From Bacteroidota bacterium (lineage in GTDB: Bacteria; Bacteroidota; Bacteroidia; B-17B0; Aurantibacillaceae), in NCBI GenBank assembly GCA_018267825.1, contig JAFDXR010000028.1, forward strand, positions 1-64,000: DNA of 64,000 nt. Reading direction: 5' to 3'. Of the stretch, positions 3,101 to 63,763 are shown in pieces; position 1 is the stretch's first letter, and every line of letters begins with the position of its first letter. A model generated the notes under the pieces. That model ran no database searches. It was not told the origin of the DNA and worked only from the letters and a program-made list of their open reading frames with translations. A program made the translations under genes and the position numbers.

Positions 3101-3343
3101 CCCGATAACCGGAATGATGTTTTTTCTGTAGCAGGTACAGGCTTTAAATCCGAAGATTTTAAAATGTACATTTTCGACCGTTGGGGTGAAATGATCTTCT
3201 ATTCCGAAGATCCTTACAAGGGCTGGGATGGTCATGTAAAAGGCGGTAAAATGGCCAAACAGGATGTGTATGTATACAAGATTATCCTGAAAGACTTTAA
3301 AGACAAGAAACATGAATATGTGGGTCATGTAACGGTTTTATAA
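149..3343 (+). CDS. Large secreted adhesin-like protein with a T9SS type-B (gliding-motility-associated) C-terminal sorting domain. It has a signal peptide, an N-terminal choice-of-anchor-like domain, about seven SprB/Ig-like repeats and a PKD domain
   Basis: N-terminus MRLTIILSIFLLFLKTTSAQ is a signal peptide. The C-terminal ~90 aa (FYIPNAFTPWVPDNRNDVF...DRWGEMIF...YKGWDG...YVYKI) match the CHU_C/T9SS type-B CTD pattern. WNFGD is a PKD-like motif. Repeated ~75-aa units contain YTVTxT..GC motifs. Confidence 0.8.
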   Translation: MRLTIILSIFLLFLKTTSAQMGVTVNSNAMQLAQVIAGFGVTVSNASISCSSTGAGTFTYTGTHLGLTGGVLLTTGDATTAAQAQTVFSSTSSGNIITDPQLTAIDASATNDVCKLEFDFVPICPTISIKYVFGSEEYPTFVGSINDAFGIFLTGPNPAGGSFNNQNIALLPNGQPVSINNVNSSSNSPSFVANYNLSYGDIVYDGYTVPITSSATVTPCQSYHIKFAIADASDEAYDSGVFLQYDGLSCANTPTITPSSTASSCTGNTGSASVAVTGATPTAYSWQPGGQTTSSITSQAPGTYTCVLTFSAACTTYTQSQVVTIAGTGVTPTVAVSSNTPCTGGNLSLTANSNGTGFTWTGPNSFSSTTQNPTVTGVSAAGAGVYTLVVTSAGGCSQTTTLNITLSPSPTVTVNSPIVCAGSTATLNASGASTYAWTAGLSGSTGSSVTGSPAATTVYTVTGTSAAGCTGTATSTITVVSNPSITVTNATVCAGGSATLTASGASTYNWSPATGLSTTTGSVVTANPSATTVYTVSGSVGTCTAAPGTGTLTASPNPTVTASANTPICAPSTLSLTANGGTSYNWSGPGGFSSTLQNPTIASTSSVNTGVYTVTATALGCNASTTVSVTILGSSVMALPTIPAACLNSNVSLNAPAGGTAYIWSGPNGFTSTQQSPVINGVTIVNTGVYTVSVTVGACVNTGTVNVSTIPAISFLTIPADAVICAQRSATLSSQAQGGSGTYGYSWSPATGLDNPSAAIVVASPSATQAYTVTATDANCPSAPTVTAVATVTVNPLPVVTFSALATSGCEPFCTDFASQSTPTALNSLWMFSTGQSVSGNVLTPFCFNGHGTYDVKLIVTDINGCVDSLIKPSYITVYPKPIADFSWYPLTPTIISSKVDFTDQSTVGAPMTNWSWNFGDFYSPLSSDTSSLQNPSHVYPNIDSYSVTLAVTNQYGCKDTVTKVLVVEDEFAFYIPNAFTPWVPDNRNDVFSVAGTGFKSEDFKMYIFDRWGEMIFYSEDPYKGWDGHVKGGKMAKQDVYVYKIILKDFKDKKHEYVGHVTVL
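899..2549 (+). repeat. Protein-level tandem array of about seven SprB/Ig-like ~75-residue repeats inside the T9SS cargo gene
   Basis: Recurring block Px(V/I)TVxxxxxxxCxGxxxxLxAxGxxxYxWxxxxGxxxxxxxVxxxPxxTTVYTVTxTxxxGC seen seven times in the translation. The DNA is diverged, so these are not identical DNA repeats. Confidence 0.5.
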
Positions 3344-17173: not shown

Positions 17174-18133
17174 TTATTCGGCGTGGATCACAATCCCCGA
17201 TGCAGGATATAATTTTCTGGAATCAAATTGCTTTTTGCCTTTGGGCTCTTTATCCTGTACATACAGGTGAATATAATACAGGCCTTTTTTCTTGAACAGA
17301 AAAGGTATTTCATACGTATTTCCAGTACGTTGTGCTTTCAATTCCCAGGGCATTAATTCATTGGTACGTTTTTTTGAGAAATCGGGGTAGGAGGTAAGCC
17401 GTTCGATCTGTTTTGGTTTCATGGGCTTCAGTGCAGTTTCGTAATAAGCCACCGAGTATACAATGTAAAGATTGTCGGGTACTGTAGCACGTATCGTTAT
17501 TTTTGTATTGATGGGGGCTGTTTCCGGAACATCTTCAAACGTGAGGTAGCGATCTACAAACTCTTCATAATAGCTGAAGCGTGTCAATGCCATGCAATAG
17601 CCAATCCCAACATAGTTGTGCGATTTCTGAATACAGTTTTGCTTATGCCCGTCGTGCGGTGCTTTTTCAGCCATAAAAGCCAGGTGCAGTTCCTTCATGA
17701 ATTTCAGGATATTGTCTTCACCCGTATCGAAAGAAGAACCTTCAATCCATTTGGCTGAGGCGTTTTCGGCCACATGATCCATGCCACCGGCAAAGGCATA
17801 GCGGTGATAGGGTTTTTCGCCGGCCATGTTCCAATGTCCCAGGTAATTGTTATCTGTCGCTTCGCGGCACATTTTATTGGCCACGCGACTGGCCAGTATA
17901 TCAAGCTGTACAGCCTGGGCACGATGCTGCTTGCGGCTTTTGTTTATAACCTGCAGCTGAATCAGTTTCAGGCGCAGCGCATCATCATTGTCTTTATAGT
18001 CCTCAAGGCGGGTTTCTGCATCATTCAGTTTTTTATAACGGTCGAATGTAGTATCGGCAACCTGTGCATGCAGCCGGCATGTGAGGCAAAGCAATAGAAT
18101 GCCCAGTAATTTAGGAATATACGAGGAGGGCAT
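17174..18133 (-). CDS. Secreted CAP (SCP/PR-1-like) domain protein
   Basis: 319 aa. Signal peptide. GHKQNCIQKSHNYVGIGYC resembles the CAP signature GHYTQVVW..VGCA. Confidence 0.45.
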   Translation of the reverse strand: MPSSYIPKLLGILLLCLTCRLHAQVADTTFDRYKKLNDAETRLEDYKDNDDALRLKLIQLQVINKSRKQHRAQAVQLDILASRVANKMCREATDNNYLGHWNMAGEKPYHRYAFAGGMDHVAENASAKWIEGSSFDTGEDNILKFMKELHLAFMAEKAPHDGHKQNCIQKSHNYVGIGYCMALTRFSYYEEFVDRYLTFEDVPETAPINTKITIRATVPDNLYIVYSVAYYETALKPMKPKQIERLTSYPDFSKKRTNELMPWELKAQRTGNTYEIPFLFKKKGLYYIHLYVQDKEPKGKKQFDSRKLYPASGIVIHAE

Positions 18134-18143
18134 GGAGAAGAAA

Positions 18144-19163
18144 TTAGTTGCGGGAGATCACCGAGGTACGCAATACCATTTTTACCGGTTCAGCACCTTC
18201 TGATTTCGAATCGATCAGTTTCAGTACAAGGTTTGCAGATTCTGTCCCGATTTTTTCAAGCGGCTGGGCCACTGAAATAATACTCGGCTTCACAAAATTA
18301 AACAGGTCGATATCGTCAAACGAAGCAACATGAATTTTGTTTTTCAGTTTATCGATGCCAAACTCATTGAATACCTCCAGGCAGGCTGTAGCCAGGTGGT
18401 TGTTAAGGGTGTAGATGGCATCTATGTTTGTATTGGTATTAAGAACCTTCACCAGTTTTTCGCGTACTTCATTCTTGATGTTGTTGAATGAAATTTCGAT
18501 CAGGTTTTCCTGCTTGAAAGGAATGTTGTATTTCTTCAACGCATCTTTAAAGCCTTTCACGCGGTCTTTCAGTGAACTGATATATGCCGGAGAAACATTG
18601 AGTGCAAGAATATTTTTACATCCTTTATGAATCAGGAGGTCTGTAATTTCGAATGAGCCCTGGTAATTATCAGCCACGACATAATTGGCTGCAAAGTCGG
18701 GCAGGTAGCGGTCGATAAAAACAATCGGGAATTTTTTCAGACGATCTGTTTTATAAATAGAGCCGTCGTTACTTGTTGTTGCAATAATAAGTCCGTCAAC
18801 AATTTGTTGTTCTGCGAGGAGTTGTACCAGTTTTTTTTCACGTTCAATATCTTCTTCGGTGCTACATACCATCAGGTTGTAACCCTTTGCTGCCAGTGCT
18901 TTTTCGGCATACTTGGCAATCTGCGAATAAAACGGGTTTGAAATATCTGCCACCAGCAAACCTACAAGGTTACTTTTACCTGTACGCAATGCACGTGCAA
19001 ATACGTTTGGTGTATATTGAAGTTCGCTGGCTTTCTCAAGTACTTTTTGTTGGGTCTTTTTGCTGATGCCATACGAATCACCCTTGCCATTTATAACCAT
19101 TGATACCAATGTTTTGGATACATTAAGTTCTTTGGCAATGTCTTCTAGTAATGTTTTTTTCAT
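18144..19163 (-). CDS. LacI-family transcriptional regulator
   Basis: 339 aa. N-terminal HTH (LEDIAKELNVSKTLVSMVINGKG) and a periplasmic-binding-protein-like effector domain. Confidence 0.85.
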   Translation of the reverse strand: MKKTLLEDIAKELNVSKTLVSMVINGKGDSYGISKKTQQKVLEKASELQYTPNVFARALRTGKSNLVGLLVADISNPFYSQIAKYAEKALAAKGYNLMVCSTEEDIEREKKLVQLLAEQQIVDGLIIATTSNDGSIYKTDRLKKFPIVFIDRYLPDFAANYVVADNYQGSFEITDLLIHKGCKNILALNVSPAYISSLKDRVKGFKDALKKYNIPFKQENLIEISFNNIKNEVREKLVKVLNTNTNIDAIYTLNNHLATACLEVFNEFGIDKLKNKIHVASFDDIDLFNFVKPSIISVAQPLEKIGTESANLVLKLIDSKSEGAEPVKMVLRTSVISRN

Positions 19164-26220: not shown

Positions 26221-26368
26221 GGAATTGGTTTATTTTTTCGGGAATTTGACTACAGAGGTTAAACAAAGTTTAAAGGCTGTTGAAATACAGTTGTAAAAAT
26301 GGCCGGCTGCAAAATCTGGAGGGGGTGTTTATACGTACATTGATCTAGAATCCGATTTCAATACACCT

Positions 26369-27103
26369 ATGTATATTTTAGTTTTCTTTCTGGCCCATTG
26401 GTTCCTCTCCTTATTCTGTCAAACTTTTTTCCTGCATCGCTATGCTTCTCATAAAATGTTCATTATGAGTCCGTTCTGGGAACGTTTCTTTTATATGCTT
26501 ACATTTTTAACACAGGGTTCTTCTTTTTTAAACCCAAGGGCTTATGCTATTATGCACCGGATGCACCATGCCTACAGTGATACCGAAAAAGACCCTCATT
26601 CGCCACATTTCTTTCGGGATGTTTGGCAAATGACGATGAAAACAAAGGACATATATCTTGCATATGCCAAATACAATGTGGAGCCCGAAAGGGCGTTCCA
26701 GGGTAAATACCCGGAGTGGAAATGGCTGGATAAGTTAAGCGACAGCTGGGTGATCAGGATTCTTTTCGGTGTTCTTTATTTTTTGTTTTACCTCAAATTT
26801 GCAACAGCCTGGTGGATGTTCCTGCTGTTGCCCGTTCATTTTTTTATGGGGCCTGTACAGGGTGCTATTGTAAACTGGTGCGGACATAAATACGGTTACA
26901 GTAATTATGATAATGAAGATCATAGTAAAAACACAGTACCCATTGACCTGTTCCTGATGGGCGAACTCATGCAGAATAATCATCATAAAAGCCCCAACAG
27001 TCCCAATTTTGCCAAACGCCGGTTTGAACTCGATCCGAGTTACCCGGTCATGAAAGTGATGCACTGGCTGCGGATCATTAAATTAAGAAAACAACCCGTA
27101 TGA
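26369..27103 (+). CDS. Membrane acyl-CoA/acyl-lipid desaturase (delta-9-type His-box family)
   Basis: 244 aa. Three His boxes: [15 protein letters not shown] and NNHHKSP. Hydrophobic segments are present. Confidence 0.8.
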
Positions 27104-27429
27104 TTGTATTTCTCCGTGTTTTATTCAGTATCCTGCTTGTGTGGATGAGCTACCAGGTTATAGATACATCCCTGCGAAGTAACTTATTTGAGGAATGGGA
27201 TTTCCTGGCGGGGATTCCATGGATGAAAGCCACACTCTGGGATTTCTATACCAATGTGCTTTTTATTTTTATCTGGGTTTGCTATAAAGAAAACAACTGG
27301 GGTATGCGCATCCTGTGGCTGATCTTATTGTGCTGCCTGGGAAGTATTGCCACCTGTATATATGTGCTGATCCAGCTTTTCCGTATTCCTAAAGATGCCG
27401 CGTTAAAAACACTATTTGTTAAATCCTGA
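27100..27429 (+). CDS. Small polytopic membrane protein of unknown function within the lipid-modification operon
   Basis: 109 aa with three hydrophobic helices. ATGA start/stop overlap with the desaturase implies translational coupling. Confidence 0.5.
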
Positions 27430-28216
27430 GCTTATGAGCCCTTATATTTTTATACCTCTGGTGAGTTGGGCACTTGTTGCCCTGATCATGATCCTTGTGT
27501 GGCTTTGGGCCCTCCGTATCAAGAATAACGGCGTGGTCGATATTTTCTGGGCCTTTAATTTTCTGGTGATTGCAGTTGTGATCTGGCTGCTTGCTGAGGG
27601 AGATCATGGACGAAAATTATTGGTGTGCGGCTTAGCGGCTCTCTGGAGTTTACGTCTGGGAACTTATCTCCTTATCCGTGTGGGCAGTCATTTAAAAGAA
27701 GAAGAAGGGCGCTACAAACAGTTGCGCACGGAGTGGGGCAATGCCAGGTTTTTTGTTTTCTTCCAGATGCAGGCACTTTCCAATGTTGTTCTGGCAATTC
27801 CTTTTTTTATGATAGCGCTGAACCCCTCTGAACATATATCCGTGTTGGAATACACAGGAGCTGTTATGTGGTTTTTAAGCATTATCGGTGAGGGCATTTC
27901 AGACTGGCAGCTTCAGCGCTTCAAAAACGATCCGGCCAATAAAGGAAAGGTTTGTGAGTATGGTCTCTGGAATTATTCGCGTCATCCCAATTACTTTTTT
28001 CAGTTAATGATCTGGGTTTCTGTTTTCATTTTTGCCTTGGCAAGTCCGTATGGATGGATTTCGGCAATTTGCCCGATCAGCATCGGTTACCTGATTTTCA
28101 AAGTAACCGGTATTCCTATGACAGAGGAGCAGTCGATACGCAGCAAGGGGGACTTATACCGTGCCTATCAGAAAAGCACCAGTGTATTTGTTCCATGGTT
28201 CAAAAAAACAAACTAA
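27416..28216 (+). CDS. DUF1295 family membrane protein (steroid-5-alpha-reductase / ICMT-like fold)
   Basis: GLWNYSRHPNYFFQ matches the DUF1295 hallmark. Multi-pass membrane protein. The start could be 27434, just after the upstream stop. Confidence 0.7.
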   Translation: MLNPELMSPYIFIPLVSWALVALIMILVWLWALRIKNNGVVDIFWAFNFLVIAVVIWLLAEGDHGRKLLVCGLAALWSLRLGTYLLIRVGSHLKEEEGRYKQLRTEWGNARFFVFFQMQALSNVVLAIPFFMIALNPSEHISVLEYTGAVMWFLSIIGEGISDWQLQRFKNDPANKGKVCEYGLWNYSRHPNYFFQLMIWVSVFIFALASPYGWISAICPISIGYLIFKVTGIPMTEEQSIRSKGDLYRAYQKSTSVFVPWFKKTN

Positions 28217-28228
28217 GCGAGAAAGCCT

Positions 28229-29257
28229 ATGTGGTACGAGTCTTTATTGGAGAAGAATAAAATTCCTGACAGCCTGATCCGTATTGGAATACGAAGATTA
28301 CTGGCACAACGGCTCCGCGATGAGAAAAAAGCAGATACGGAAGCGCAGCAGGCCCATTTTATGGAGCTTGTGAATGAACTGAAACAGGCACCCATTGCCA
28401 TACATACAGCCGATGCCAACCAGCAGCATTATGAGGTGCCCACGGCATTTTATAAATATTGCCTGGGTAAACATTTAAAATACAGCAGCGGTTATTGGAA
28501 ACCGGGTGTAATTGATATTGATACTTCGGAAAAAGATATGCTGGAACTTACCTGCGAACGGGCCGGACTGGCTGACGGACAGGATGTGCTTGAACTGGGT
28601 TGTGGCTGGGGTTCCTTGTCTTTATTCATGGCTGCCAGATACCCGGGAAGCCGCTTTACGGTTGTTTCCAATTCGCGTACACAAAAGGTGTATATTGATG
28701 AACAGGCCCGGTTGCGCGGAATTAATAACCTTACGGTTATCACTGCCGACATCAATGCATTTACCATTCAGCAGACCTTTGATCGTATTGTATCCGTCGA
28801 AATGTTTGAGCACATGCGCAATTACCAGGCATTGCTGCAAAAAGTATCGTCGTTTATGAAACCCGATGCCAGATTGTTCATTCACATTTTTACGCATAAA
28901 ACCTATGCCTATAAGTTTGAAGTGATTGATGACACGGATTGGATGAGCCGTTATTTTTTTACAGGAGGCATTATGCCCAGCGACCATTTGCTGATGTATT
29001 TCGCAGATCATCTATCTGTTCAGAAACACTGGCATGTAAGCGGTACGCATTATCAGAAAACATCGGAGGCCTGGCTTCGGAACATGGACCGCCATAAAGA
29101 CCAGATTATGCCATTGTTCCGCGAAACATACGGCGCAGACCAGGCTTTGAAATGGTGGGTATACTGGCGTATATTCTTTATGGCGTGTGCCGAGCTCTGG
29201 GGCTATCATGGAGGCGAGGAGTGGATTGTAAGTCATTACCTGTTTTCAAAAAAATAG
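28229..29257 (+). CDS. Cyclopropane-fatty-acyl-phospholipid synthase-like SAM-dependent methyltransferase (short form)
   Basis: 342 aa. SAM motif I VLELGCGWGSLS and a CFAS-family C-terminal region. Confidence 0.8.
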   Translation: MWYESLLEKNKIPDSLIRIGIRRLLAQRLRDEKKADTEAQQAHFMELVNELKQAPIAIHTADANQQHYEVPTAFYKYCLGKHLKYSSGYWKPGVIDIDTSEKDMLELTCERAGLADGQDVLELGCGWGSLSLFMAARYPGSRFTVVSNSRTQKVYIDEQARLRGINNLTVITADINAFTIQQTFDRIVSVEMFEHMRNYQALLQKVSSFMKPDARLFIHIFTHKTYAYKFEVIDDTDWMSRYFFTGGIMPSDHLLMYFADHLSVQKHWHVSGTHYQKTSEAWLRNMDRHKDQIMPLFRETYGADQALKWWVYWRIFFMACAELWGYHGGEEWIVSHYLFSKK

Positions 29258-29261
29258 AAAA

Positions 29262-30524
29262 ATGGAGCGTCTGGCAATTATAGGAACAGGTATAGCAGGT
29301 ATGGGCTGTGGTCATTTACTTCAGCAACATTATGATCTGACATTGTTCGAACAAAATAATTATGTGGGTGGGCACACCAATACCATCCGGGTAGATGAGA
29401 ATGGCAGGCCTGTGTATATGGATACGGGGTTTATGGTATTCAACTACGAAACGTATCCCAATCTCTGCCGCTTATTTGAAGAGATAAAAGCACCCGTTAA
29501 AAAAACAGACATGTCTTTCAGTGTGCAGCATGTACCAAGTGGGCTCGAGTATTGTGGTTCGGGACTGAATGGTCTTTTTGCACAGCGTAAAAACATATTC
29601 GATCGGTCTTACATCCGTATGCTGGGACAGATTGCCAGGTTCAATAAGGAGAGTGTTCATATTCTTGATAATCCGAAGTACGCCGATTACTCATTGGGAA
29701 AATATATCCGGGAATGCGGTTATGGTGATGATATGCTCTGGAAATACCTCGTGCCGATGAGTTCGGCAGTATGGTCGACACCCATGGAAGAAATGCTGGA
29801 GTTTCCGGCAGTAACACTCGTGCGTTTTTTTAAGAACCATGGTTTCCTGGGTTTAAATACGCAGCATCAGTGGTATACCCTCGAAAATGGCAGTCAGTCT
29901 TATCGTGAATTGCTTATTGCACCGTTTCATAACCGGATTCATACAACCTGCGGGGCGGTGCGTGTGGAAGCCTCTGAGCACGGTGCTAAAGTATACCTTT
30001 CGGATGGACGCCAGGAGTATTTCGATAAGGTTATTATGGCTTGTCATGGAGATGAGGCACTGCGATTGCTGGCGAATCCGGATGCCCTGCAGCAACGCCT
30101 TCTTTCTGCTTTTAAATATCAATACAATAAAGCGACTGTGCATACCGATGAATCTGTGATGCCCAAAACACGGCGTACCTGGAGCAGCTGGAATTACAGA
30201 ATTGAGAAACGGGGAGAGGCGTTATTACCAACCACTATTTATTGGATGAATTCATTGCAGGGCGTTTCAAAACATAAAAATTATTTTGTCTCCATCAATG
30301 CGCTTGATCAGAGCATAGATGAAAGGAAGATCATCCGGGAAATAGATTATGAGCATCCTTTGTTTGATGTGACTGCCATTAAGGCCCAGGAAGAGTTGCA
30401 TAAGCTTAATGCTACCGGCCCCTTATATTTCTGCGGGAGTTATTTTAAATATGGGTTTCATGAGGACGCTTACGCCAGTGCTGTGAACCTCTGCAACAGG
30501 ATATTGAATCCGACAAATACATAA
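29262..30524 (+). CDS. FAD/NAD(P)-binding amine-oxidase-like oxidoreductase
   Basis: 420 aa. N-terminal Rossmann segment LAIIGTGIAGMGCG and an amine-oxidase-like C-terminus. Confidence 0.8.
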   Translation: MERLAIIGTGIAGMGCGHLLQQHYDLTLFEQNNYVGGHTNTIRVDENGRPVYMDTGFMVFNYETYPNLCRLFEEIKAPVKKTDMSFSVQHVPSGLEYCGSGLNGLFAQRKNIFDRSYIRMLGQIARFNKESVHILDNPKYADYSLGKYIRECGYGDDMLWKYLVPMSSAVWSTPMEEMLEFPAVTLVRFFKNHGFLGLNTQHQWYTLENGSQSYRELLIAPFHNRIHTTCGAVRVEASEHGAKVYLSDGRQEYFDKVIMACHGDEALRLLANPDALQQRLLSAFKYQYNKATVHTDESVMPKTRRTWSSWNYRIEKRGEALLPTTIYWMNSLQGVSKHKNYFVSINALDQSIDERKIIREIDYEHPLFDVTAIKAQEELHKLNATGPLYFCGSYFKYGFHEDAYASAVNLCNRILNPTNT

Positions 30525-30528
30525 CCCG

Positions 30529-31338
30529 ATGAACTCCTGTTTGTATAAAGCCACTGTTATGCATCATCGCACGAAACCTGTACCACACAGGTTTCACTAC
30601 AATGTATTTATGTTTTATATAGACCTGGATGAGCTGGATATGTTGACGCAGAAGTTTAAGATGATCAGCAGAAACCGGTTTAATTTTTTCAGCTTCCGCG
30701 ATTCGGAGCACCTGCAATTACCTGTAGACAGACCGGATACGACCAAAACAACCAAAGAACATATAACAGATTATATCCGGAGCTGTGGCATTACCGACGA
30801 AATTTCGAAAGTGATGCTGCTCACCAATTTAAATGTATTGGGCTATAACTTCAATCCGGTATCGTTTTACTATTGTTATAACGCGCAGAATCAACCCTTA
30901 TGTGCTATTGCTGAGGTCAGCAATACCTTCCGGGAAATGAAACCTTATTTGCTGAATGCAGATGCCTTTAACGGGGAGCAGTTTCAGCTCAACACCACGA
31001 AGTATTTTTATGTGTCACCGTTTATTGATCATGATGCCAATTTTGATTTCAGGTTGTCGGTGCCCGGTGAAAAGCTGAATATCCGCATTGATGATATAAA
31101 GGATGATGAGCGTTTTTTTATAAGCACACTTACCGGGCAGCGCCGGGCAATGACCAACCGGGCCTTATTTTCGTACAGTGTGCGTTTCCCGTTTATTACA
31201 CTTTTAATTATAACCCGTATACACTGGCATGCGCTGCGGTTGTGGCTGAAAAAGCTTCCGTTTCACCGGAAAGCGGAACACGGAGATCTGCAACGTGACG
31301 TATTCCGTAAGTATGAGAAAAATAAAGTGCCAAAGTAA
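30529..31338 (+). CDS. DUF1365 family protein
   Basis: 269 aa. N-terminus YKATVMHHRTKPVPHRFHYNVFMFYIDLDEL is characteristic of DUF1365. Confidence 0.75.
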   Translation: MNSCLYKATVMHHRTKPVPHRFHYNVFMFYIDLDELDMLTQKFKMISRNRFNFFSFRDSEHLQLPVDRPDTTKTTKEHITDYIRSCGITDEISKVMLLTNLNVLGYNFNPVSFYYCYNAQNQPLCAIAEVSNTFREMKPYLLNADAFNGEQFQLNTTKYFYVSPFIDHDANFDFRLSVPGEKLNIRIDDIKDDERFFISTLTGQRRAMTNRALFSYSVRFPFITLLIITRIHWHALRLWLKKLPFHRKAEHGDLQRDVFRKYEKNKVPK

Positions 31339-31359
31339 AAACATATTTAAAATTGATTT

Positions 31360-32598
31360 ATGGAAACAGTTCTTACACTAAATGCCAAACGTACGTTTTA
31401 TGAAAAAATCGTACTGGGCCTGCTTTCAAAAATGGACAAGGGGCGCTGTGAAATGACGATGCCATCCGGTGAACAGATCGTTCTCGGAAATAACCAGGGA
31501 CATATCCGGGCGGATATACGGATAAAAGACCAGGCTTTTTTTAAACACTGCGTATTATACGGCGATATTGGTTTTGGGGAGGCTTATGTAGAAGGGTATT
31601 GGGACACAGACAGTATTACGGATGTTATATGCTGGGTATTGCTCAATATTGAAAATGCTCCCGGGGTTTCCGGAAGTGCGGCACAATCTGTAGCACTTAA
31701 TCTGCTTAAGGTATTTAATAAAATATATCATCTCAGGCGTTCGAATAGCCTGACAGGTTCGCGTAAAAACATATCGGAACATTATGATCTCAATAATGAT
31801 TTCTTTGCCTTGTTTCTGGACCCCGGCATGACGTATTCATCGGCTTATTACCGTGAGCCGGACATGACACTTGAGCAGGCACAGTTCGAAAAGTATGACC
31901 GCCTGTGCAAACAACTGCATCTGCAGCCAACCGATCATGTGCTTGAGATTGGTAGCGGCTGGGGAGCCAATGCCATTCATATGGCCCGACATTATGGTTG
32001 CCGTGTTACGACGGTTACTATTTCAGAAGAGCAGTATAAACTGGCCCTGGAGCGGGTGAGAGCGGCCGGGCTGGAGGCACAGATTCAGGTTTTGCTTAAA
32101 GATTACAGGCATATAGAAGGGACGTATGATAAAATTGTTTCTGTTGAAATGATTGAAGCCGTGGGAGCCGAATACTACAATGACTATTTCCGGAAGTGCC
32201 ACGAGTTGTTGAATAAACAAGGGATTCTGGCTATACAGGCCATTACCTGTCCCGATTCACGATTTGAAAGCCTGCGCACAGGTGTTGACTGGATTCAGAA
32301 GCATATCTTTCCGGGTTCCCTGCTTCCTTCGGTGGCAGCCATGAATAAAGCCATTAATAATACCGGCGACATGACACTCGTAGATCTGAAGGATATAGGG
32401 TTGCATTACGCAAGGACTCTTGCAGAGTGGAGGGTACAGTTTAACCGGAATCTGGAACAGGTAAAGCAGCTGGGTTTCGATAACCGGTTTATACGTAAGT
32501 GGAACTACTACCTGAGCTATTGCGAAGCCGCATTTGCCATGCGTAATATTCATGTCATGCAGCTGGTATATACCCGGCCGAATAATATCTTGCGTTAA
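31360..32598 (+). CDS. cfa: Cyclopropane-fatty-acyl-phospholipid synthase family methyltransferase (long form)
   Basis: 412 aa. SAM motif VLEIGSGWGANAI and a full CFAS architecture. Confidence 0.85.
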   Translation: METVLTLNAKRTFYEKIVLGLLSKMDKGRCEMTMPSGEQIVLGNNQGHIRADIRIKDQAFFKHCVLYGDIGFGEAYVEGYWDTDSITDVICWVLLNIENAPGVSGSAAQSVALNLLKVFNKIYHLRRSNSLTGSRKNISEHYDLNNDFFALFLDPGMTYSSAYYREPDMTLEQAQFEKYDRLCKQLHLQPTDHVLEIGSGWGANAIHMARHYGCRVTTVTISEEQYKLALERVRAAGLEAQIQVLLKDYRHIEGTYDKIVSVEMIEAVGAEYYNDYFRKCHELLNKQGILAIQAITCPDSRFESLRTGVDWIQKHIFPGSLLPSVAAMNKAINNTGDMTLVDLKDIGLHYARTLAEWRVQFNRNLEQVKQLGFDNRFIRKWNYYLSYCEAAFAMRNIHVMQLVYTRPNNILR

Positions 32599-33941
32599 GG
32601 GTTTGTTTTTTCCTCCCTGAACTTTGTAAAGATCAGGGCTGCTACCAGGCACAACACAAATCCAAGCAAACCATTGAGGCGCACACCAAAGTCGTTTCCT
32701 GTATCTTTCCCGTAAATCAGGAACATGGCGAAAAGCCCCATACCAATGGTCTGTGCTATTTTTACAAAAAAGTAACGCACAGCAAAATAAAAAGCTTCTT
32801 TGTTCTCACCGGTTTCAGCACTGTCTTTCTCAATAATTTCAGCCAGTACCGCATTGGGCAATATGTTCAGCGAAGCCAGCGGAATAGCTGCAAATCCTAT
32901 CAACAGGTAAATCTGAATGTTGGGATCGATCGATACCTTTCCGAGAAAATAAATTCCCAGGAAAATACAGGCCAGCAATAATTGCGAAAACAAAATGATG
33001 ATTTTCTTCCCGATGCGTTTTGCCAGAAAATTGACTACGGGGTAAAAAATAAATGAGACGAGAACCATAGTGATCATGAGCCTGTTGCCTATACTTTCTT
33101 TCAGGCCGAGCAACACCGTGATGAAATACATCAGGCCGGATGTGATGATCGTTATCGAAATGAAATACGAAAAATCGGCAACAATAAACAGCAGAAAATT
33201 TTTGTTTGTCAGTGTTTGCCGAAGGGCCTGTCTCATAGGAATGGCGCTTGGTTTGCCGACACCGTATTTTTTTTCATCGATGGCAAATACGGTTATGGCC
33301 ATAAAAACAGCAGCCAGCATGGCAAAGCAAAAAATAGTAGCTTGCAGGGCATGCATTTTTGAATCCAGATGAAAACGGCTCTGAAACAGATCTGCCAGGT
33401 TGAACGCATTGGAACTGATGCCTATACCAAACACATAGCCAACAGATTGCCAGGTAGCAAGTTTTACTTTGTCGCCGGGTGTTCGGGCAAGCTCAGGTAA
33501 CAGGGCATTGTAAGGAATAATGTATGTTGTTGTAGCCATATAGAACCCGATCAGGGTAATGATCAGCCACAGGATATTGATGGTGCTTTCCTCCTGTTTT
33601 AATGGGTAAAATACAAGGCAGCAAAAAACAAGAGAAGGAATGATGGACCATTTCATGATGGGGATTCGCCGGCCTTTGGGGTTTTTGCTACGGTCGCTGA
33701 TCTGTGCAATGAAAGGATCATAAATGGCATCAGCCAACCGCCCACCGGCTGTGATAAGCGCTACGGCATTAAATAAGCCAAATACAACAACCTGGGTAAT
33801 AAGAACCGGGATACCGCTGTTTGCGGGTGGCAGATACATGTATACCAGAATCACACTGATGAGGTTGATCAGAATACTCCAACCCATCATGCCACAGGCA
33901 TAAGCCAGTTGTTTACCAAAGGGTAATGTATTTTCGTGCAT
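32595..33941 (-). CDS. MFS transporter, glycoside-pentoside-hexuronide:cation symporter-like
   Basis: 448 aa, 12 predicted TM helices, GPH/MFS-like N-terminus. Confidence 0.7.
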   Translation of the reverse strand: MHENTLPFGKQLAYACGMMGWSILINLISVILVYMYLPPANSGIPVLITQVVVFGLFNAVALITAGGRLADAIYDPFIAQISDRSKNPKGRRIPIMKWSIIPSLVFCCLVFYPLKQEESTINILWLIITLIGFYMATTTYIIPYNALLPELARTPGDKVKLATWQSVGYVFGIGISSNAFNLADLFQSRFHLDSKMHALQATIFCFAMLAAVFMAITVFAIDEKKYGVGKPSAIPMRQALRQTLTNKNFLLFIVADFSYFISITIITSGLMYFITVLLGLKESIGNRLMITMVLVSFIFYPVVNFLAKRIGKKIIILFSQLLLACIFLGIYFLGKVSIDPNIQIYLLIGFAAIPLASLNILPNAVLAEIIEKDSAETGENKEAFYFAVRYFFVKIAQTIGMGLFAMFLIYGKDTGNDFGVRLNGLLGFVLCLVAALIFTKFREEKTNP

Positions 33942-35315: not shown

Positions 35316-35681
35316 ATGAATTTTATCATTCGTTTACTCATTTCCACAGCGGCTGTAATGCTTACGGCATTATTGCTGCCCGGTGTACAGATTGAGGGCA
35401 ATAGTTTTTTCACGGCTCTGCTTGTGGCTATTGTCCTGGCATTTCTGAATGCCGTTGTAAAACCTGTGCTCACCATACTTTCCCTGCCCATTACATTTTT
35501 CACGCTGGGCCTGTTTTTACTGGTGATTAATGCCATTATTATTCTGCTTGCCGATAAGCTGGTCGATGGCTTTCATGTAAAGGGATTCTGGAGTGCTTTG
35601 TTTTTCAGCATCATTCTTGCCATTATCAACAGTATTCTCGATAACATGAGCGGGAATAAACGCCCCGAAGATACCTACTGA
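35316..35681 (+). CDS. Phage-holin-family (4-TMS, holin superfamily IV-like) small membrane protein
   Basis: 121 aa, four hydrophobic helices, charged C-terminal tail KRPEDTY. A stand-alone gene. Confidence 0.5.
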   Translation: MNFIIRLLISTAAVMLTALLLPGVQIEGNSFFTALLVAIVLAFLNAVVKPVLTILSLPITFFTLGLFLLVINAIIILLADKLVDGFHVKGFWSALFFSIILAIINSILDNMSGNKRPEDTY

Positions 35682-48753: not shown

Positions 48754-51700
48754 CTATTTGTATCTTGCTACGTAGGTAATATTCGACAATAGCTTTGTAT
48801 TATCGATCACTTCTACCTCCAGGTGCGGGTATTTCGCCAATGCGTTTTTGATCAGCTGTCCGCTCACAAAATGCAGACCGCTTCCACTCGTTTTATTGAA
48901 GCCTGAATTGGTGCTGAAAAATTCGGTATACCAGGTTCCTTTCTGGCGCTTGCCAAGGTCGGCATCTGCATCACGAATCACAAGCACTCCGCCGCGGTTA
49001 AGCTTTGCCACGCAATGATCGATAACCTGTACCTGTTGTGATGCTTCGAGGTAATGAAGCACATCACTGATAATAAATCCATCGGCCTGCGGGAATTCGT
49101 AAGCTGTAACATCGCCTACAGCAAATTGCATGCGTGAGGTTTTGTGTACGCAATTATCGGCTATGGCTATTTTTTCATCGTCGTAATCTACTCCCAGGAT
49201 ATTTCGGTCTCTACCTTTATACATAAGCATATATGGCAAAAATCCATATCCACAGCCTACATCCACAATCTGCCCGGTTTTCGGCATCAGGCTTTCAAAC
49301 AGGGCGTAGTTGTTTTCCAGTTTTGTTTTGATGCGGCAATACCATTCCAACACGGGACCTTTGAAAATATAATTGCGGATCAGGCGTGGCCTGAAATAAT
49401 CAACGGTTTCAAACTGTTCGCGGAGCGCAGCATACTCCGTGCGCATATAACGGCAAATACCTTTGGTACGCTCCTGGTATGTGTTTCCGAAAGATGTATC
49501 CTGTGGGGAGATGCGCTTCAGGTACTTGACGGTAAGCGCGCCATCCTTGAAATGGAAATCGCCTTTGGTTACGGCGTCTCCGGCACCATGGATCAGTAAG
49601 GGCAGAATATCGAGTTGTAATTTTTCAGCCAGCAGGAATGCGCCTTTATGAAAACGATGAATTTCTCCGTCTACACTGCGTGTCCCTTCCGGGAATATCA
49701 GAATGGAGTAACCTTCTTTGACAAGCTTTTCAAGTTTAGGTAAACTGTTTTCATAGCCCTCTGAAGCCGGGTAATAATCGGCCATTTTTACAATGAATCC
49801 ATAAAAAGGAGAATTATATACCCAGTCGTTGGTAAACACGATTATTTTAGGATGCAACTGAAGTGTGAGGGCCAGATCAATATGTGACTGATGGTTAGCT
49901 ACAATAACGGCCGGTTTCGCAAAGGTTTCGTTCTGATCGTTGATGATGCGTTTTTTTACATTGAAGAAACAGGCCAGAATGGCGCGGAAAGTGTAGGCAA
50001 TGAGGGTGTGGAAAACCAGTTTGCGGGTTCGGATACCCGCTGGGAAGATGGAAAAGATAATAAGTCCCGAAAGTGTCAGCAACAGGGCCCCCAGCACAAA
50101 GCCCATGAACCCGATGATTGTAATGAATATATACTTGGCAGAGTAGGGCTGTAACCCGCGGTGACGGCGGTTCAGGGCCATCCAGTTAAAAATAAGTGGT
50201 TGTACTATAAATGAAATAAATACCACACAGCTCATGCCTATGATTGTGATGGCGGCAATGGATTTGAGGGCCGGATGTTTGGCAAGGATCATGGTGCCGA
50301 TGCCAATAACCGTGATGAGGGCCGACAGAAGGATGGAGGATTTGTAGGAATCCAGGTTCTTCTTACCGTACTTGAATTCATTGAGGAGCCCATCCATAAT
50401 AAAGATACTGTAATCGTCGCCGAGCCCGAAGATGAACGTGGATATAATGATATTGATGATGTTGAATTTGATTCCGAATATGCCCATGATACCAAGGATC
50501 CAGAGCCATGAAATAAACATGGGCAGGAAATTGATAATGGCGAGTTCAATACGCCCGTGCGAAAGCAGCATGAACGCAAAAACCAGGATGGATGTAATGA
50601 TCAGGATGGTGTTGAAGTCCTGCTGTATAACCTGCACAAAGCGCGATGTAAGATTCTGCTTATCAAAAACAACCACATCGGGATCGTGCTCGAATGCGGC
50701 ATAAACCTTTTCGCGGTTTTCCGCATTCGTTTTCACATGGCATACCACCGAGGTTTTTCCATTTACCTGGCCTGTAAATTCTTTAAACACGAGCTGAAGC
50801 AGGGTATCCGAATCGGCTTTAGGCAATAAACCATAATTTTTATTCAGCTGTTCGTAGAAACCGTGGAATGCATTTTCTTTGAATTTGAGCGTAGCACCCG
50901 ATGCAATGAGTTGCTTCTGCAGTGCAGCTTTACGGGCTGGTGTAAAAAAATCGTTCCAGCGTTTAATACGGCGCTCCTGTTCCTGGGCAGAGGTGAATAA
51001 GCCTGCTACAGAAGAAAACTTCTTAATATGTCCATCACTTTTCAGTGATTTGAGTTCTGCCTCCACCTGAGCATTTTTTTCGAGGGCTTCATTCAACGAA
51101 TTACCGGTAGCAAAAACGTACACCGAACGAGCAGCAAAGTTGTTGACTTCATCGAGGTGTTTCTCTGCGGCACGGGTTTCATCGGTCATGAAACTCATTT
51201 TGTTCATGTCGCTTTCAAATTCAACCCGGCTGGCAAACCATGCAAATACAACGGTTAGGAGCATGGCACCGATCACCACAAACTTATGCTTATCGGGCCT
51301 GGCTGCAGTAATACGGTCAAGCAGGTTGCCTGAGTTGTGATGCGCTTCGTCAGGTGTTTCTGTAGTGTTTTTTTGTTTTCTGAAAGCCACTTTCAACAGA
51401 TGTGGCAATACAATGATTGAGAACAGCATGGCACCGATCAGCGAAAAACCGGCGAACTGGCCGAAATCATGAAGCGCTTCGGATTTGGCAAACAGTAAAC
51501 TAAAAAAAGCGCCAACCGTGGTGGTACAGCCAATGAGCATAGGCAGAGTCAGATCGCTCAGTACGGTTTTTACATCGCGCACATGCTTGTAATGCGTGAA
51601 AAAATGAAGTGAATAGTTGATCGCAATACCAAGTACCACGGCACCGGCACCAATAGCGATGGCTGATACAATGCCCTTGGTGAGAAATAAAATGCCCAGC

Positions 51701-52623
51701 GAAAAAGCCATACCAAATGCTACCGGGAACATAATGAATACAATGAGCAAGGGATTGCGGAAGTAAAGTCCCAGGAGCAGGGCAATGAGACCCACCGCTA
51801 TAAGGCTGGTGAGCATGCTGTCTTTCCTTAACTGGCGGGCATTTCCTTCAGACACAATGGTGGCACCGAATGGTTCAATGCGAATTGCCCGGTGTTTGGA
51901 CTGCACCTTTTTGCAGGCTTCCGTCACCGTATTGACGAGGTGCTCGTTCAGTTTGGTTTCGTTAGGGGCATGGGCAGGTGTAATAAAAAACAGTACATGC
52001 AGGTGGTCTTTACTGGCGATGTAACCATTGTAGGTTTCAAAATTGGCATCCAGCTGAACCGACTGTAGTTTCTTTAAAGCCAGGGGCGTGATGTTCAGCG
52101 GATCACGCATAATGTATTTGCCAAGCACCATACCCGAAGGCGACAGCAAAGCCTGGTAATCTTTATTCAGTGTATAATCAATACTATCGGGGCGGGTAAT
52201 ATTTTCAAGCTTCCTGTAATCTTCTTCTTCCAGAAACAAAGGAATGTTCCGGTAAAAGATATCATACATCTGCTGGGTACGTTCATCCGATAGTTTGAAA
52301 CGTATGTCGTTATAGTCATGAGATGTCAGTTTACGGGTCAGTTCTGCATAAATGCTATCGGCGCATTCCGTGAGGCTGTCGATCTGTTCGGGATTGGTAC
52401 CGGTGAGGTGTATAACGAGTTTATCTTTGGATTTCAGGTTATCAAGAACAGCATTAATGGCGCTGGTATTTTTATCGGAAGGAACAAAGCGTGTAATATC
52501 TTCTTCGAGCTTGATCCGGGATGCCAGATAGCCCAGTATACCACAGCTGGCAATGATCAGGATAATAAAAAACAACTTCCTTTTCTGAAAGAAAAGGTAC
52601 ACCAAATAGGGCAGGTTTGACAT
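48754..52623 (-). CDS. Trifunctional fusion protein: MMPL/RND-type exporter, lysophospholipid (LPLAT) acyltransferase and class I SAM-dependent methyltransferase
   Basis: 1289 aa. About 12 TM segments in two MMPL-like halves. Acyltransferase motifs VANHQSHIDL and FPEGTR. Methyltransferase motif I VDVGCGYGFLP plus motif II LVIRDAD. Confidence 0.85.
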   Translation of the reverse strand: MSNLPYLVYLFFQKRKLFFIILIIASCGILGYLASRIKLEEDITRFVPSDKNTSAINAVLDNLKSKDKLVIHLTGTNPEQIDSLTECADSIYAELTRKLTSHDYNDIRFKLSDERTQQMYDIFYRNIPLFLEEEDYRKLENITRPDSIDYTLNKDYQALLSPSGMVLGKYIMRDPLNITPLALKKLQSVQLDANFETYNGYIASKDHLHVLFFITPAHAPNETKLNEHLVNTVTEACKKVQSKHRAIRIEPFGATIVSEGNARQLRKDSMLTSLIAVGLIALLLGLYFRNPLLIVFIMFPVAFGMAFSLGILFLTKGIVSAIAIGAGAVVLGIAINYSLHFFTHYKHVRDVKTVLSDLTLPMLIGCTTTVGAFFSLLFAKSEALHDFGQFAGFSLIGAMLFSIIVLPHLLKVAFRKQKNTTETPDEAHHNSGNLLDRITAARPDKHKFVVIGAMLLTVVFAWFASRVEFESDMNKMSFMTDETRAAEKHLDEVNNFAARSVYVFATGNSLNEALEKNAQVEAELKSLKSDGHIKKFSSVAGLFTSAQEQERRIKRWNDFFTPARKAALQKQLIASGATLKFKENAFHGFYEQLNKNYGLLPKADSDTLLQLVFKEFTGQVNGKTSVVCHVKTNAENREKVYAAFEHDPDVVVFDKQNLTSRFVQVIQQDFNTILIITSILVFAFMLLSHGRIELAIINFLPMFISWLWILGIMGIFGIKFNIINIIISTFIFGLGDDYSIFIMDGLLNEFKYGKKNLDSYKSSILLSALITVIGIGTMILAKHPALKSIAAITIIGMSCVVFISFIVQPLIFNWMALNRRHRGLQPYSAKYIFITIIGFMGFVLGALLLTLSGLIIFSIFPAGIRTRKLVFHTLIAYTFRAILACFFNVKKRIINDQNETFAKPAVIVANHQSHIDLALTLQLHPKIIVFTNDWVYNSPFYGFIVKMADYYPASEGYENSLPKLEKLVKEGYSILIFPEGTRSVDGEIHRFHKGAFLLAEKLQLDILPLLIHGAGDAVTKGDFHFKDGALTVKYLKRISPQDTSFGNTYQERTKGICRYMRTEYAALREQFETVDYFRPRLIRNYIFKGPVLEWYCRIKTKLENNYALFESLMPKTGQIVDVGCGYGFLPYMLMYKGRDRNILGVDYDDEKIAIADNCVHKTSRMQFAVGDVTAYEFPQADGFIISDVLHYLEASQQVQVIDHCVAKLNRGGVLVIRDADADLGKRQKGTWYTEFFSTNSGFNKTSGSGLHFVSGQLIKNALAKYPHLEVEVIDNTKLLSNITYVARYK

Positions 52624-63679: not shown

Positions 63680-63763
63680 AATGGTTGAAAAATATTTTAA
63701 GAGTCCTAATTTAATCGAATTATAGTAACGCACTGGTTTTAATGAGTGAGTCTATAAAATGAA

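Follow-up and report, generated by a model that had tools for sequence, protein, structure and literature searches.

What does a Bacteroidota bacterium make with seven tightly packed genes that encode a fatty-acid desaturase, two methyltransferases, a flavoprotein oxidase, and proteins of the DUF1475, DUF1295 and DUF1365 families? The question is raised by positions 26369..32598 of a 64-kb stretch of DNA (hereafter the window; positions 1 to 64,000 of contig JAFDXR010000028.1) from a metagenome-assembled genome (MAG) of the Aurantibacillaceae (GCA_018267825.1). The original prediction held that this operon contains a homolog of every enzyme of furan fatty acid (FuFA) synthesis. FuFA are potent radical and singlet-oxygen scavengers of nutritional and industrial interest, and their biosynthesis has been shown in few Proteobacteria only. 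The prediction holds by homology and synteny, as judged from Pfam families, gene order, clades and published identities. Family membership, gene order, clade placement, active-site differences from the cyclopropane synthase Cfa and published cross-kingdom identities together support a Bacteroidota version of the Ufa/Fuf pathway, and we consider it probable that the operon modifies phospholipid-bound acyl chains in this way.

The reference pathway was worked out by Lemke et al. in 2020 (PMC7380195). UfaM methylates cis-vaccenate on phospholipids, UfaD, a protein with flavin adenine dinucleotide (FAD)/NAD domains, makes the 10t,12t methylated diene, and UfaO inserts O2-derived oxygen to give 9M5-FuFA. 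FufM (RPA0924) then methylates 9M5-FuFA to 9D5-FuFA and has no action on 18:1. In Rhodopseudomonas palustris CGA009, ufaD-ufaO-ufaM correspond to RPA2571-RPA2570-RPA2569, and these three genes are necessary and sufficient (PMC7380195).

Seven genes and their protein families

The open reading frame (ORF) list and a reading of the sequence place seven plus-strand genes between 26369 and 32598. They are joined by a 4-nucleotide (nt) ATGA stop/start overlap at 27100 and then by gaps of 4, 12, 4, 4 and 21 nt, which bears out the coordinates and the 4- to 21-nt junctions of the original prediction. ATG is the start codon of all seven, and coding bases make up 6,189 of the 6,230. The mechanical ORF list starts the DUF1295 gene at TTG 27416, overlapping the DUF1475 gene by 14 nt; ATG 27434 is the likelier start because it leaves a 4-nt gap and gives 260 residues, in line with orthologs of 259-264 residues. 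A scan of the operon for internal sigma-70-type promoters and terminators, whose design does not cover Bacteroidota promoters, yielded no more of them than expected from shuffled sequence. Pfam agrees with the predicted families (FA_desaturase, DUF1295, two CMAS, Amino_oxidase and DUF1365) and makes the predicted 109-residue membrane protein a DUF1475 member. None of the seven proteins reaches an NCBIfam equivalog cutoff.

The UfaD-like protein is a 420-residue FAD flavoprotein of the amine-oxidase family (29262..30524, plus strand; Pfam Amino_oxidase, 5e-20, and NAD_binding_8) for which a PDB search gave the amine oxidase LkcE as best match (5e-28). Over its full length it is 33-38% identical to the oxidases of Acinetobacter, Ralstonia, Pseudoalteromonas and Paracoccus whose genes immediately precede that of DUF1365. 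Its stop codon falls 4 nt before the DUF1365 start, the same position that ufaD occupies in R. palustris and Rhodobacter sphaeroides. It thus shares with UfaD both the FAD/NAD-binding, amine-oxidase/phytoene-desaturase-like character and the place directly upstream of a ufaO-type gene. That next gene (30529..31338, plus strand) encodes a 269-residue, UfaO-like protein that matches Pfam DUF1365 over its full length (5e-76) and is predicted to carry out O2-dependent furan-ring formation. The characterised UfaO (Q3IYV8) is a member of the same Pfam family, as the original prediction said and the published description confirms (PMC7380195). A PDB sequence search with the DUF1365 protein found no match. 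A fold search places it among hydrophobic-ligand barrels and ranks first a cofactor-free spirocyclase that forms an O-heterocycle.

Downstream lies the gene for the UfaM-like protein, a 412-residue S-adenosylmethionine (SAM) methyltransferase of the cyclopropane fatty acid synthase (CFAS) family with a Cfa-type N-terminal region (31360..32598, plus strand; Pfam CMAS, 2e-89). This long methylase shares the full-length architecture of Escherichia coli Cfa (PDB 6BQC) and is 35.6% identical to it in an alignment over residues 34-374. Against the NCBIfam Cfa equivalog it scores 295 bits, and the short methylase of the operon 153 bits; neither passes the cutoff of 400. Methylase relationships were drawn by neighbour-joining, with proteobacterial plasmid clusters, E. 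coli Cfa, and a plant coclaurine N-methyltransferase (CNMT) transcribed from its PDB alignment as proxies. In this proxy-based tree the methylases form two clades, neither with E. coli Cfa; placement of both enzymes inside true cyclopropane synthase clades, which would have spoken against the original prediction, was not seen. The long clade comprises the DUF1365-linked methylases of Bacteroidota, Acinetobacter (47% identity), Pseudoalteromonas and Ralstonia and stands beside but apart from Cfa. Throughout this clade E239 and Y317 of Cfa are kept, whereas C139S, G236E, H240A and H266Q replacements are found. In Cfa, closure of the cyclopropane ring uses bicarbonate as the base. The five-residue Cfa bicarbonate site (C139, E239, H266, I268 and Y317) is incomplete in both window enzymes, with S139 and Q266 in the long methylase and S139 in the short. 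Loss of two bicarbonate ligands across the clade fits methyl-alkene chemistry of the UfaM type. A cyclopropane-synthase locus was considered and rejected on residues, NCBIfam cutoff and tree.

Experiments on related enzymes have been published. The cluster-linked enzyme of R. palustris makes 11-methyl-12-octadecenoate (PMC7380195), and in Halomonas, where ufaM, ufaD and ufaO are consecutive, the in-cluster methylase makes 11-methyloctadec-12-enoate in E. coli (PMC12089945). The best match in Pseudomonas syringae to UfaM (RSP2144) is the in-cluster PSPTO_1116 (PMC5507510).

The short methylase (28229..29257, plus strand, 342 residues; Pfam CMAS, 1.5e-37), a candidate of the FufM type, had been described as a short CFAS-like methyltransferase. 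It is indeed a SAM methyltransferase but far nearer to plant N-methyltransferases than to cyclopropane synthases, with 42.6% identity over 338 residues to its best PDB match, the plant CNMT 6gkv (8.8e-86), versus only 30% over 220 residues to E. coli Cfa. Among solved structures, the plant coclaurine, pavine and tetrahydroprotoberberine N-methyltransferases are those it matches best. Residues 7-341 align end to end with CNMT 14-351, placing EMFEHM opposite ELFEHM of CNMT, and the same E-x-x-E-H motif is present in both; we take E204/E207/H208 to be the CNMT active-site motif. Full-length similarity and this motif make the short methylase a CNMT-family member by sequence alone, an assignment that does not imply N-methylation. 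Benzylisoquinoline substrates are implausible in bacteria, and the bacterial relative FufM, unlike the plant enzymes, is a furan fatty acid C-methylase.

Several indirect lines of evidence suggest that the short methylase is of the FufM type. The two window methylases are 26% identical, and FufM and UfaM about 26% (PMC7380195). Cloning-primer sequences reveal that RPA0923 overlaps fufM by ATGA, and the Shinella DUF1295 gene overlaps its short methylase gene likewise. The primer-derived C-terminus of FufM, RLKPA, matches Shinella ...SHYRLRPA... and the family ending (window ...SHYLFSKK, CNMT ...SHVLFKK), not a Cfa-type ending. FufM (Q6NBA4) is 37.9% identical to Arabidopsis AT4G33110/LIME1, as reported by Omata et al. 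in 2024 (PMC10940516). Identity of the window enzyme to the short methylases linked to DUF1295 in Acinetobacter, Ralstonia and Shinella is 48-52%, and with them it clusters next to CNMT. LIME1 presumably belongs to the CNMT-like family; a literature search combining LIME1 with coclaurine gave no confirming paper, and one combining CNMT with furan fatty acids gave no relevant paper.

The operon begins with a 244-residue membrane fatty-acid desaturase (26369..27103, plus strand; Pfam FA_desaturase, 8e-17). It has three transmembrane (TM)-like segments and three His boxes, HRYASH at 23, HRMHH at 63 and QNNHH at 202, as befits a polytopic PF00487 protein, and scores 62 bits against the Pfam cutoff of 29.7. 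With the NCBIfam DesA-family model it scores 117 bits, under the 400-bit cutoff, and its PDB match is weak (acyl-CoA desaturase 1, E = 1e-4). It is 71-72% identical to the first operon gene product of Mucilaginibacter and Pedobacter and 27% identical to the desaturase of the Acinetobacter cluster. At one related locus (L020, 7257..7988) the public call of the desaturase (213 residues, start at 7347) is truncated, and starting at ATG 7257 restores the conserved N-terminus: MIIIIVFFLCHWFLSLF.

The second and third genes encode a small DUF1475 membrane protein (27100..27429, plus strand, 109 residues; Pfam DUF1475, 3e-21) and a polytopic DUF1295 membrane protein belonging to the steroid-5-alpha-reductase/ICMT-like superfamily (27434..28216, plus strand, 260 residues; Pfam DUF1295, 2e-65; Steroid_dh, 3e-8). 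The DUF1475 protein is a single-unit form, matches only the second half of the 236-position Pfam profile, and is modelled by AlphaFold2 (AF2) as a helical bundle (pLDDT 87). An exhaustive HMMER search found only 635 clusters of this family, in single-unit forms of about 110 residues and forms of about 215-310 residues that match the profile twice; the sampled two-unit forms are land-plant proteins (Solanum, Oryza, Elaeis, Lotus and Digitaria). There was no DUF1475 match among 72,556 plasmids. The DUF1295 protein has six TM-like segments, and a PDB sequence search with it found no match. Its gene is immediately upstream of that of the short methylase in the window, in related loci L001-L003, L015-L017, L020 and L021, and in Acinetobacter, Ralstonia and Shinella. 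Every DUF1475 gene seen in a bacterial locus sits directly upstream of a DUF1295 gene. In Mucilaginibacter flavus (L019, 7382..9126) the two follow an AhpC/Redoxin gene and occur without methylase, oxidase or DUF1365. Because the M. flavus module holds only these genes, the pair can stand alone beside a peroxiredoxin, and the constant adjacency together with this solitary pair marks DUF1475 as a partner of DUF1295, not of the desaturase. UsgR, a fungal enzyme resembling DUF1295 proteins, is an ene-reductase (PMC8597850). Singlet-oxygen-induced genes of Chlamydomonas include CFA1, the 'coclaurine N-methyltransferase' CFA2/CPLD27 and a gene for a DUF1295 protein (PMC4067076).

Relatives of the operon in bacteria and plants

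Far from being unique to the source MAG, this architecture is standard in Sphingobacteriia-type Bacteroidota. The cultured isolate Pedobacter sp. L105 (L016) carries the identical seven genes in identical order. The same order, with an additional alpha/beta-hydrolase gene between short methylase and oxidase, was seen at a Mucilaginibacter locus and on a Joint Genome Institute (JGI) metagenome contig (L021), and in four other genomes (L001-L003 and L017) the operon lacks the desaturase and occurs with or without DUF1475. More than 120 cluster representatives are 63-70% identical to the DUF1365 protein; where named, they come from Bacteroidia, Bacteroidota or Sphingobacteriaceae. The proteins of the window are 51-77% identical to those of their Bacteroidota relatives, and the outer flanks differ. 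Recurrence of the same genes in the same order at this level of identity, amid differing flanks, indicates that the cluster is more than a chance grouping. The original proposal of a distinct single-operon architecture does not hold: the same order is present in Pedobacter, Mucilaginibacter and numerous Bacteroidia MAGs have a near-identical one, and six of the seven families, the desaturase included, are found together on an Acinetobacter plasmid. Its accompanying statement, that furan fatty acids have not been tied to a defined Bacteroidota locus, stands in the literature searched, where a search for furan fatty acids together with Bacteroidetes found no paper that does so.

Two variations among the relatives were also seen. 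The hydrolase of the short methylase-oxidase interval (about 376 residues, BD-FAE/Abhydrolase_3) is encoded at L001, L002, L003, L015, L020 and L021; the window, Pedobacter L105 and L017 lack it. At L020 no DUF1365 or long methylase gene follows the oxidase.

Comparison with R. palustris CGA009 shows both shared and altered features. As there, oxidase, DUF1365 and long methylase genes are adjacent and in the same order (window gaps of 4 and 21 nt), a second methylase of about 26% identity is translationally coupled to an upstream gene, and all the enzymes are predicted to act on phospholipid-bound chains. Unlike R. palustris, the window, which belongs to another phylum, fuses both modules in one operon with the FufM-type module first and adds the desaturase and DUF1475. 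A degenerate IUPAC probe derived from R. palustris primer junctions (ufaD/ufaO and RPA0923/fufM) gave only chance matches in genome and metagenome collections.

Other Proteobacteria have clusters assigned to the sigma-E/ChrR singlet-oxygen regulon. The oxidase-DUF1365-long methylase core of the window is shared with these regulon clusters (R. sphaeroides RSP1091-1087, P. syringae PSPTO_1121-1114, Pseudoalteromonas, Ralstonia and Acinetobacter), as may be a TGATCC-N16-CGTA-type motif upstream; Ralstonia and Acinetobacter further share DUF1295 with the short methylase, and Acinetobacter also the desaturase. On the Acinetobacter piscicola plasmid, co-directional and tightly spaced genes encode a lipocalin, an acyl-CoA desaturase, an FAD oxidoreductase, DUF1365, a long methylase, DUF1295 and a short methylase, giving one-to-one best matches for the six window families. 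Ralstonia has five of the window families beside DUF2878, lipocalin, chalcone-isomerase-like and photolyase genes. In Pseudoalteromonas, sigma/ChrR genes are accompanied by photolyase, SDR, oxidase, DUF1365, long methylase and DUF2878 genes, and in Shinella they are followed directly by DUF1295 and the short methylase. Identities between the window and the proteobacterial clusters, one-to-one throughout, are 48-52% for the short methylase, 38-47% for the long methylase, 33-38% for the oxidase, 35-40% for DUF1295 and 27-35% for DUF1365. In contrast to the proteobacterial clusters, the Bacteroidota operons swap the module order, placing the FufM-type module first, and add DUF1475 and, in many relatives but not in the window, the alpha/beta-hydrolase.

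Similarity extends to plants and algae. The Arabidopsis lipid-droplet proteins AtUFAMD1 (AT3G23510), AtUFAO1 (AT1G30130) and LIME1/AtFUFM1 (AT4G33110) and the Chlamydomonas CFA1, CFA2/CPLD27 and DUF1295 genes represent the same families: oxidase plus CFAS, DUF1365, CNMT-like methylase and DUF1295. Among the homologs sampled, DUF1475 is otherwise a land-plant family. The DUF1475, DUF1295 and Chlamydomonas findings thus give every operon family except the generic desaturase a plant or algal counterpart. Plants differ from the window in having fused oxidase and CFAS domains, two-unit DUF1475 and dispersed genes, and the function of the plant proteins is itself inferred. DUF1295 and DUF1475 are candidates for missing steps of the plant pathway because they adjoin a FufM-type methylase gene and both have plant homologs.

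Candidate promoter motifs and neighboring genes

A candidate promoter of the extracytoplasmic function (ECF), sigma-E/ChrR type, AAATCT-N16-CGTA, was read from the sequence at 26312..26337 (plus strand), 31 nt before the first ATG. The sigma-E/ChrR consensus is TGATCC-N16-CGTA, and the P. syringae phrB-to-cfa locus, which has DUF1365 and oxidase genes, carries aGATCC-N16-CGTA (PMC5507510). Scored against this proteobacterial consensus, the window site matches 3/6 positions of the first element and 4/4 of the second; the first element matches at 5/6 in L015 (TGAACC) and L001 (AGATCC) and at 3/6 in L020 and L021. These five sites lie 23-67 nt before the first start codon, with L020 at 23 nt. The pattern A[AT]C[CT]-N16-CGTA, picked post hoc by eye and then counted, has 6 matches in 1.3 kb of upstream DNA (window, L015, L001, L002, L003 and L020) versus 1 per 11.2 kb of background strand in the same loci. 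No 9-mers are shared among the operon upstream regions, and the window operon has no Bacteroidota -7 box (TAnnTTTG) upstream.

Within the operon, AGATCT-N16-CGTA at 31284..31309 (plus strand), in the 3' end of the DUF1365 gene and 50 nt before that of the long methylase, is a possible second sigma-E-type promoter. The site (A/G)GATCT-N16-CGTA occurs 50-96 nt before the long methylase at five loci with 4/6 matches (the window, L001, L002, L003 and L021) and at L017 with 3/6. It overlaps the conserved codons of ...DLQRDVFRK..., and the synonymous choices GAT/CTN/CGT are kept in all motif-bearing loci (chance about 0.11 per locus). Lemke et al. assumed an RSP1089 promoter inside RSP1090 (PMC7380195). 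As a promoter, the internal motif is suggestive only. Overall, the motifs suggest ECF-type, stress-linked control of the operon by a sigma factor encoded elsewhere.

Elsewhere in the window, its only 6/6 match, TGATCC-N16-CGTA at 49595..49570 (minus strand), falls at the acyltransferase/methyltransferase domain boundary of a 1,289-residue protein (48754..52623, minus strand) in which an MMPL transporter region is joined to a PlsC-type acyltransferase and a class I methyltransferase. A 5/6 match, TGAACC-N16-CGTA at 18192..18167 (minus strand), lies inside the end of a LacI-family gene and 33 nt upstream of an ORF for a 319-residue protein with a weak CAP (cysteine-rich secretory protein) domain (17174..18133, minus strand). 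There are three matches of at least 5/6 in the window versus about 3.6 expected, so the site at 18192..18167 could be a chance occurrence.

Housekeeping genes flank the operon, upstream accB/accC and recA, with a divergent lipoprotein gene, and downstream a convergent MFS_2 transporter gene, fumarylacetoacetase and dnaB. The transporter, a 448-residue MFS_2/GPH-family protein (32595..33941, minus strand; Pfam MFS_2, 1e-46) with no PDB sequence relative found, has a stop codon that overlaps that of the long methylase by 4 nt. An MFS_2 gene is likewise convergent to the operon in L001, L002, L003, L015, L017 and L021 and one gene away in L016, and the other flanks differ. The transporter is thus a conserved neighbor whose belonging to the system is uncertain. 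In L001-L003 and L017, MFS_2 is followed by a gene for a Redoxin/AhpC-PAS-SpoIIE (PP2C phosphatase) protein or by split forms of that gene. This redox-sensing signalling protein is absent from the window. The window also encodes a 121-residue holin-family membrane protein with four transmembrane segments (35316..35681) and, at its two ends, large PKD proteins with the CHU_C type IX secretion signal (149..3343 and 60833..63733). The whole 64 kb contains no tRNA genes and no Rfam families at gathering threshold.

Proposed pathway and competing explanations

By homology to the characterised enzymes, the proposed pathway would begin with the His-box desaturase, which would supply a cis-monounsaturated acyl chain. 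The UfaM-like long methylase would add a methyl group from SAM at the double bond to leave a methyl-branched trans-alkene and no cyclopropane, and the UfaD-like FAD enzyme would introduce a second, conjugated trans double bond. The UfaO-like DUF1365 beta-barrel may then hold the methylated diene, insert one oxygen atom from O2 and close the furan ring, which the FufM-like short methylase would methylate again to yield a dimethyl furan fatty acid. Membrane accessory roles are predicted for DUF1295, a possible ene-reductase or membrane anchor, and for DUF1475, its constant partner. In the membrane, the products would scavenge singlet oxygen and radicals, a role already proposed in Rhodobacter.

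A number of observations weigh against this reading. The established substrate, cis-vaccenate, is not known to be among the typical major fatty acids of Bacteroidota. Literature searches found no lipid data on furan fatty acids in the source MAG or any Bacteroidota. Likeness to UfaM, UfaD, UfaO and FufM was judged through Pfam families, synteny, published identities and proxies, and the primer-derived RPA0923 junction does not show DUF1295 identity. R. sphaeroides makes FuFA without its cluster-linked methylase RSP1089, and its UfaM gene lies outside the cluster (PMC7380195), so linkage to DUF1365 is no guarantee of UfaM activity. By tblastn, the window and the 9-10 kb around the relatives' operons showed no adjacent photolyase, SDR, lipocalin, DUF2878, DUF2177, chalcone-isomerase-like (CHI-like) or NTF2 genes. 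With Pseudoalteromonas and Shinella sigma/ChrR proteins as queries, tblastn found nothing, whether in the 64 kb of the window or in the 9-10 kb around six related operons. The sigma-E-type motif is absent upstream in Pedobacter L105 and L017, the pattern that was counted was chosen after inspection, and the -35 hexamer in the window reaches only 3/6.

The same enzymes could act on the same acyl substrates and stop at, or turn toward, another end product, whether methyl-branched or conjugated-diene acids, cyclopropane or cyclopropene acids, or saturated mid-chain methyl-branched acids formed by the short methylase with DUF1295 as ene-reductase, as in the tuberculostearic acid route. Plant oxidase-CFAS fusions include the Sterculia cyclopropane synthase, which counts in favor of such an outcome. 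So do the dispensability for FuFA synthesis of RSP1089, DUF1365-linked as it is, the steroid-reductase similarity of DUF1295, whose relative UsgR is a proven ene-reductase, and the M. flavus locus, where retention of DUF1475-DUF1295 alone implies a furan-independent function for the pair. We nonetheless regard a different end product as unlikely. DUF1365 is present and well conserved, and no role is known for it but furan-ring formation. The long methylase clade is without two of the Cfa bicarbonate ligands, both experimentally tested cluster-linked methylases make methyl-alkenes and not cyclopropanes, and FufM, the sole characterised bacterial relative of the short methylase, methylates the furan ring and not 18:1.

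It is improbable that the operon acts on some other lipid, such as isoprenoid quinones, carotenoid- or flexirubin-type polyenes, or the sphingoid bases of Sphingobacteriia, given that its first gene encodes a fatty-acid desaturase, that the full-length architecture of Cfa, N-terminal region included, is retained in the long methylase, and that all bacterial experimental data on these families concern phospholipid acyl chains. The oxidase does resemble phytoene and hydroxysqualene desaturases weakly at its N-terminus, but this similarity is confined to the dinucleotide-binding region and is far under cutoffs. Concentration of the operon in Sphingobacteriia, the polyketide substrate of LkcE, the best solved oxidase relative, and the alkaloid substrates of the nearest solved relatives of the short methylase also point toward other substrates. 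A highly improbable explanation is that DUF1295 and the short methylase form a module for N-methylation of a head group or amine and are merely co-located with the Ufa genes. Identity of 43% to a true N-methyltransferase with retention of the E-x-x-E-H motif, membership of DUF1295 in the phospholipid-methyltransferase/ICMT-like superfamily with a faint ICMT match, and the Shinella pair, which lies apart from any oxidase directly after sigma/ChrR, are in keeping with that idea. Yet FufM, at 37.9% identity to AT4G33110/LIME1, is a demonstrated 9M5-FuFA C-methylase, and the pair is in one operon with Ufa genes in Bacteroidota, Acinetobacter and Ralstonia.

Furan fatty acid synthesis by the Ufa/Fuf route therefore remains our preferred reading. 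A broader proposal, which we offer tentatively and consider unlikely as a whole, is that Sphingobacteriia are unrecognised makers of mono- and dimethyl furan fatty acids; that the DUF1475-DUF1295 pair, viewed as invariably coupled to the FufM-type methylase and with its other sampled homologs in plants and algae, may supply two missing components of this pathway and possibly of the plant pathway too; and that two promoters may answer to a sigma-E/ChrR-type ECF sigma factor acting in trans, which would extend the regulon beyond Proteobacteria.

The Ufa/Fuf pathway has been described before, and clusters related to it are widespread; the gain is one of scope and not of principle, with some variant features of the Bacteroidota operon in module order, the DUF1475-DUF1295 pair and putative regulation in trans. 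Because carriers such as the soil isolate Pedobacter sp. L105 and Mucilaginibacter are culturable, the prediction is quickly testable. If it is true, abundant soil Bacteroidota would also make furan fatty acids.

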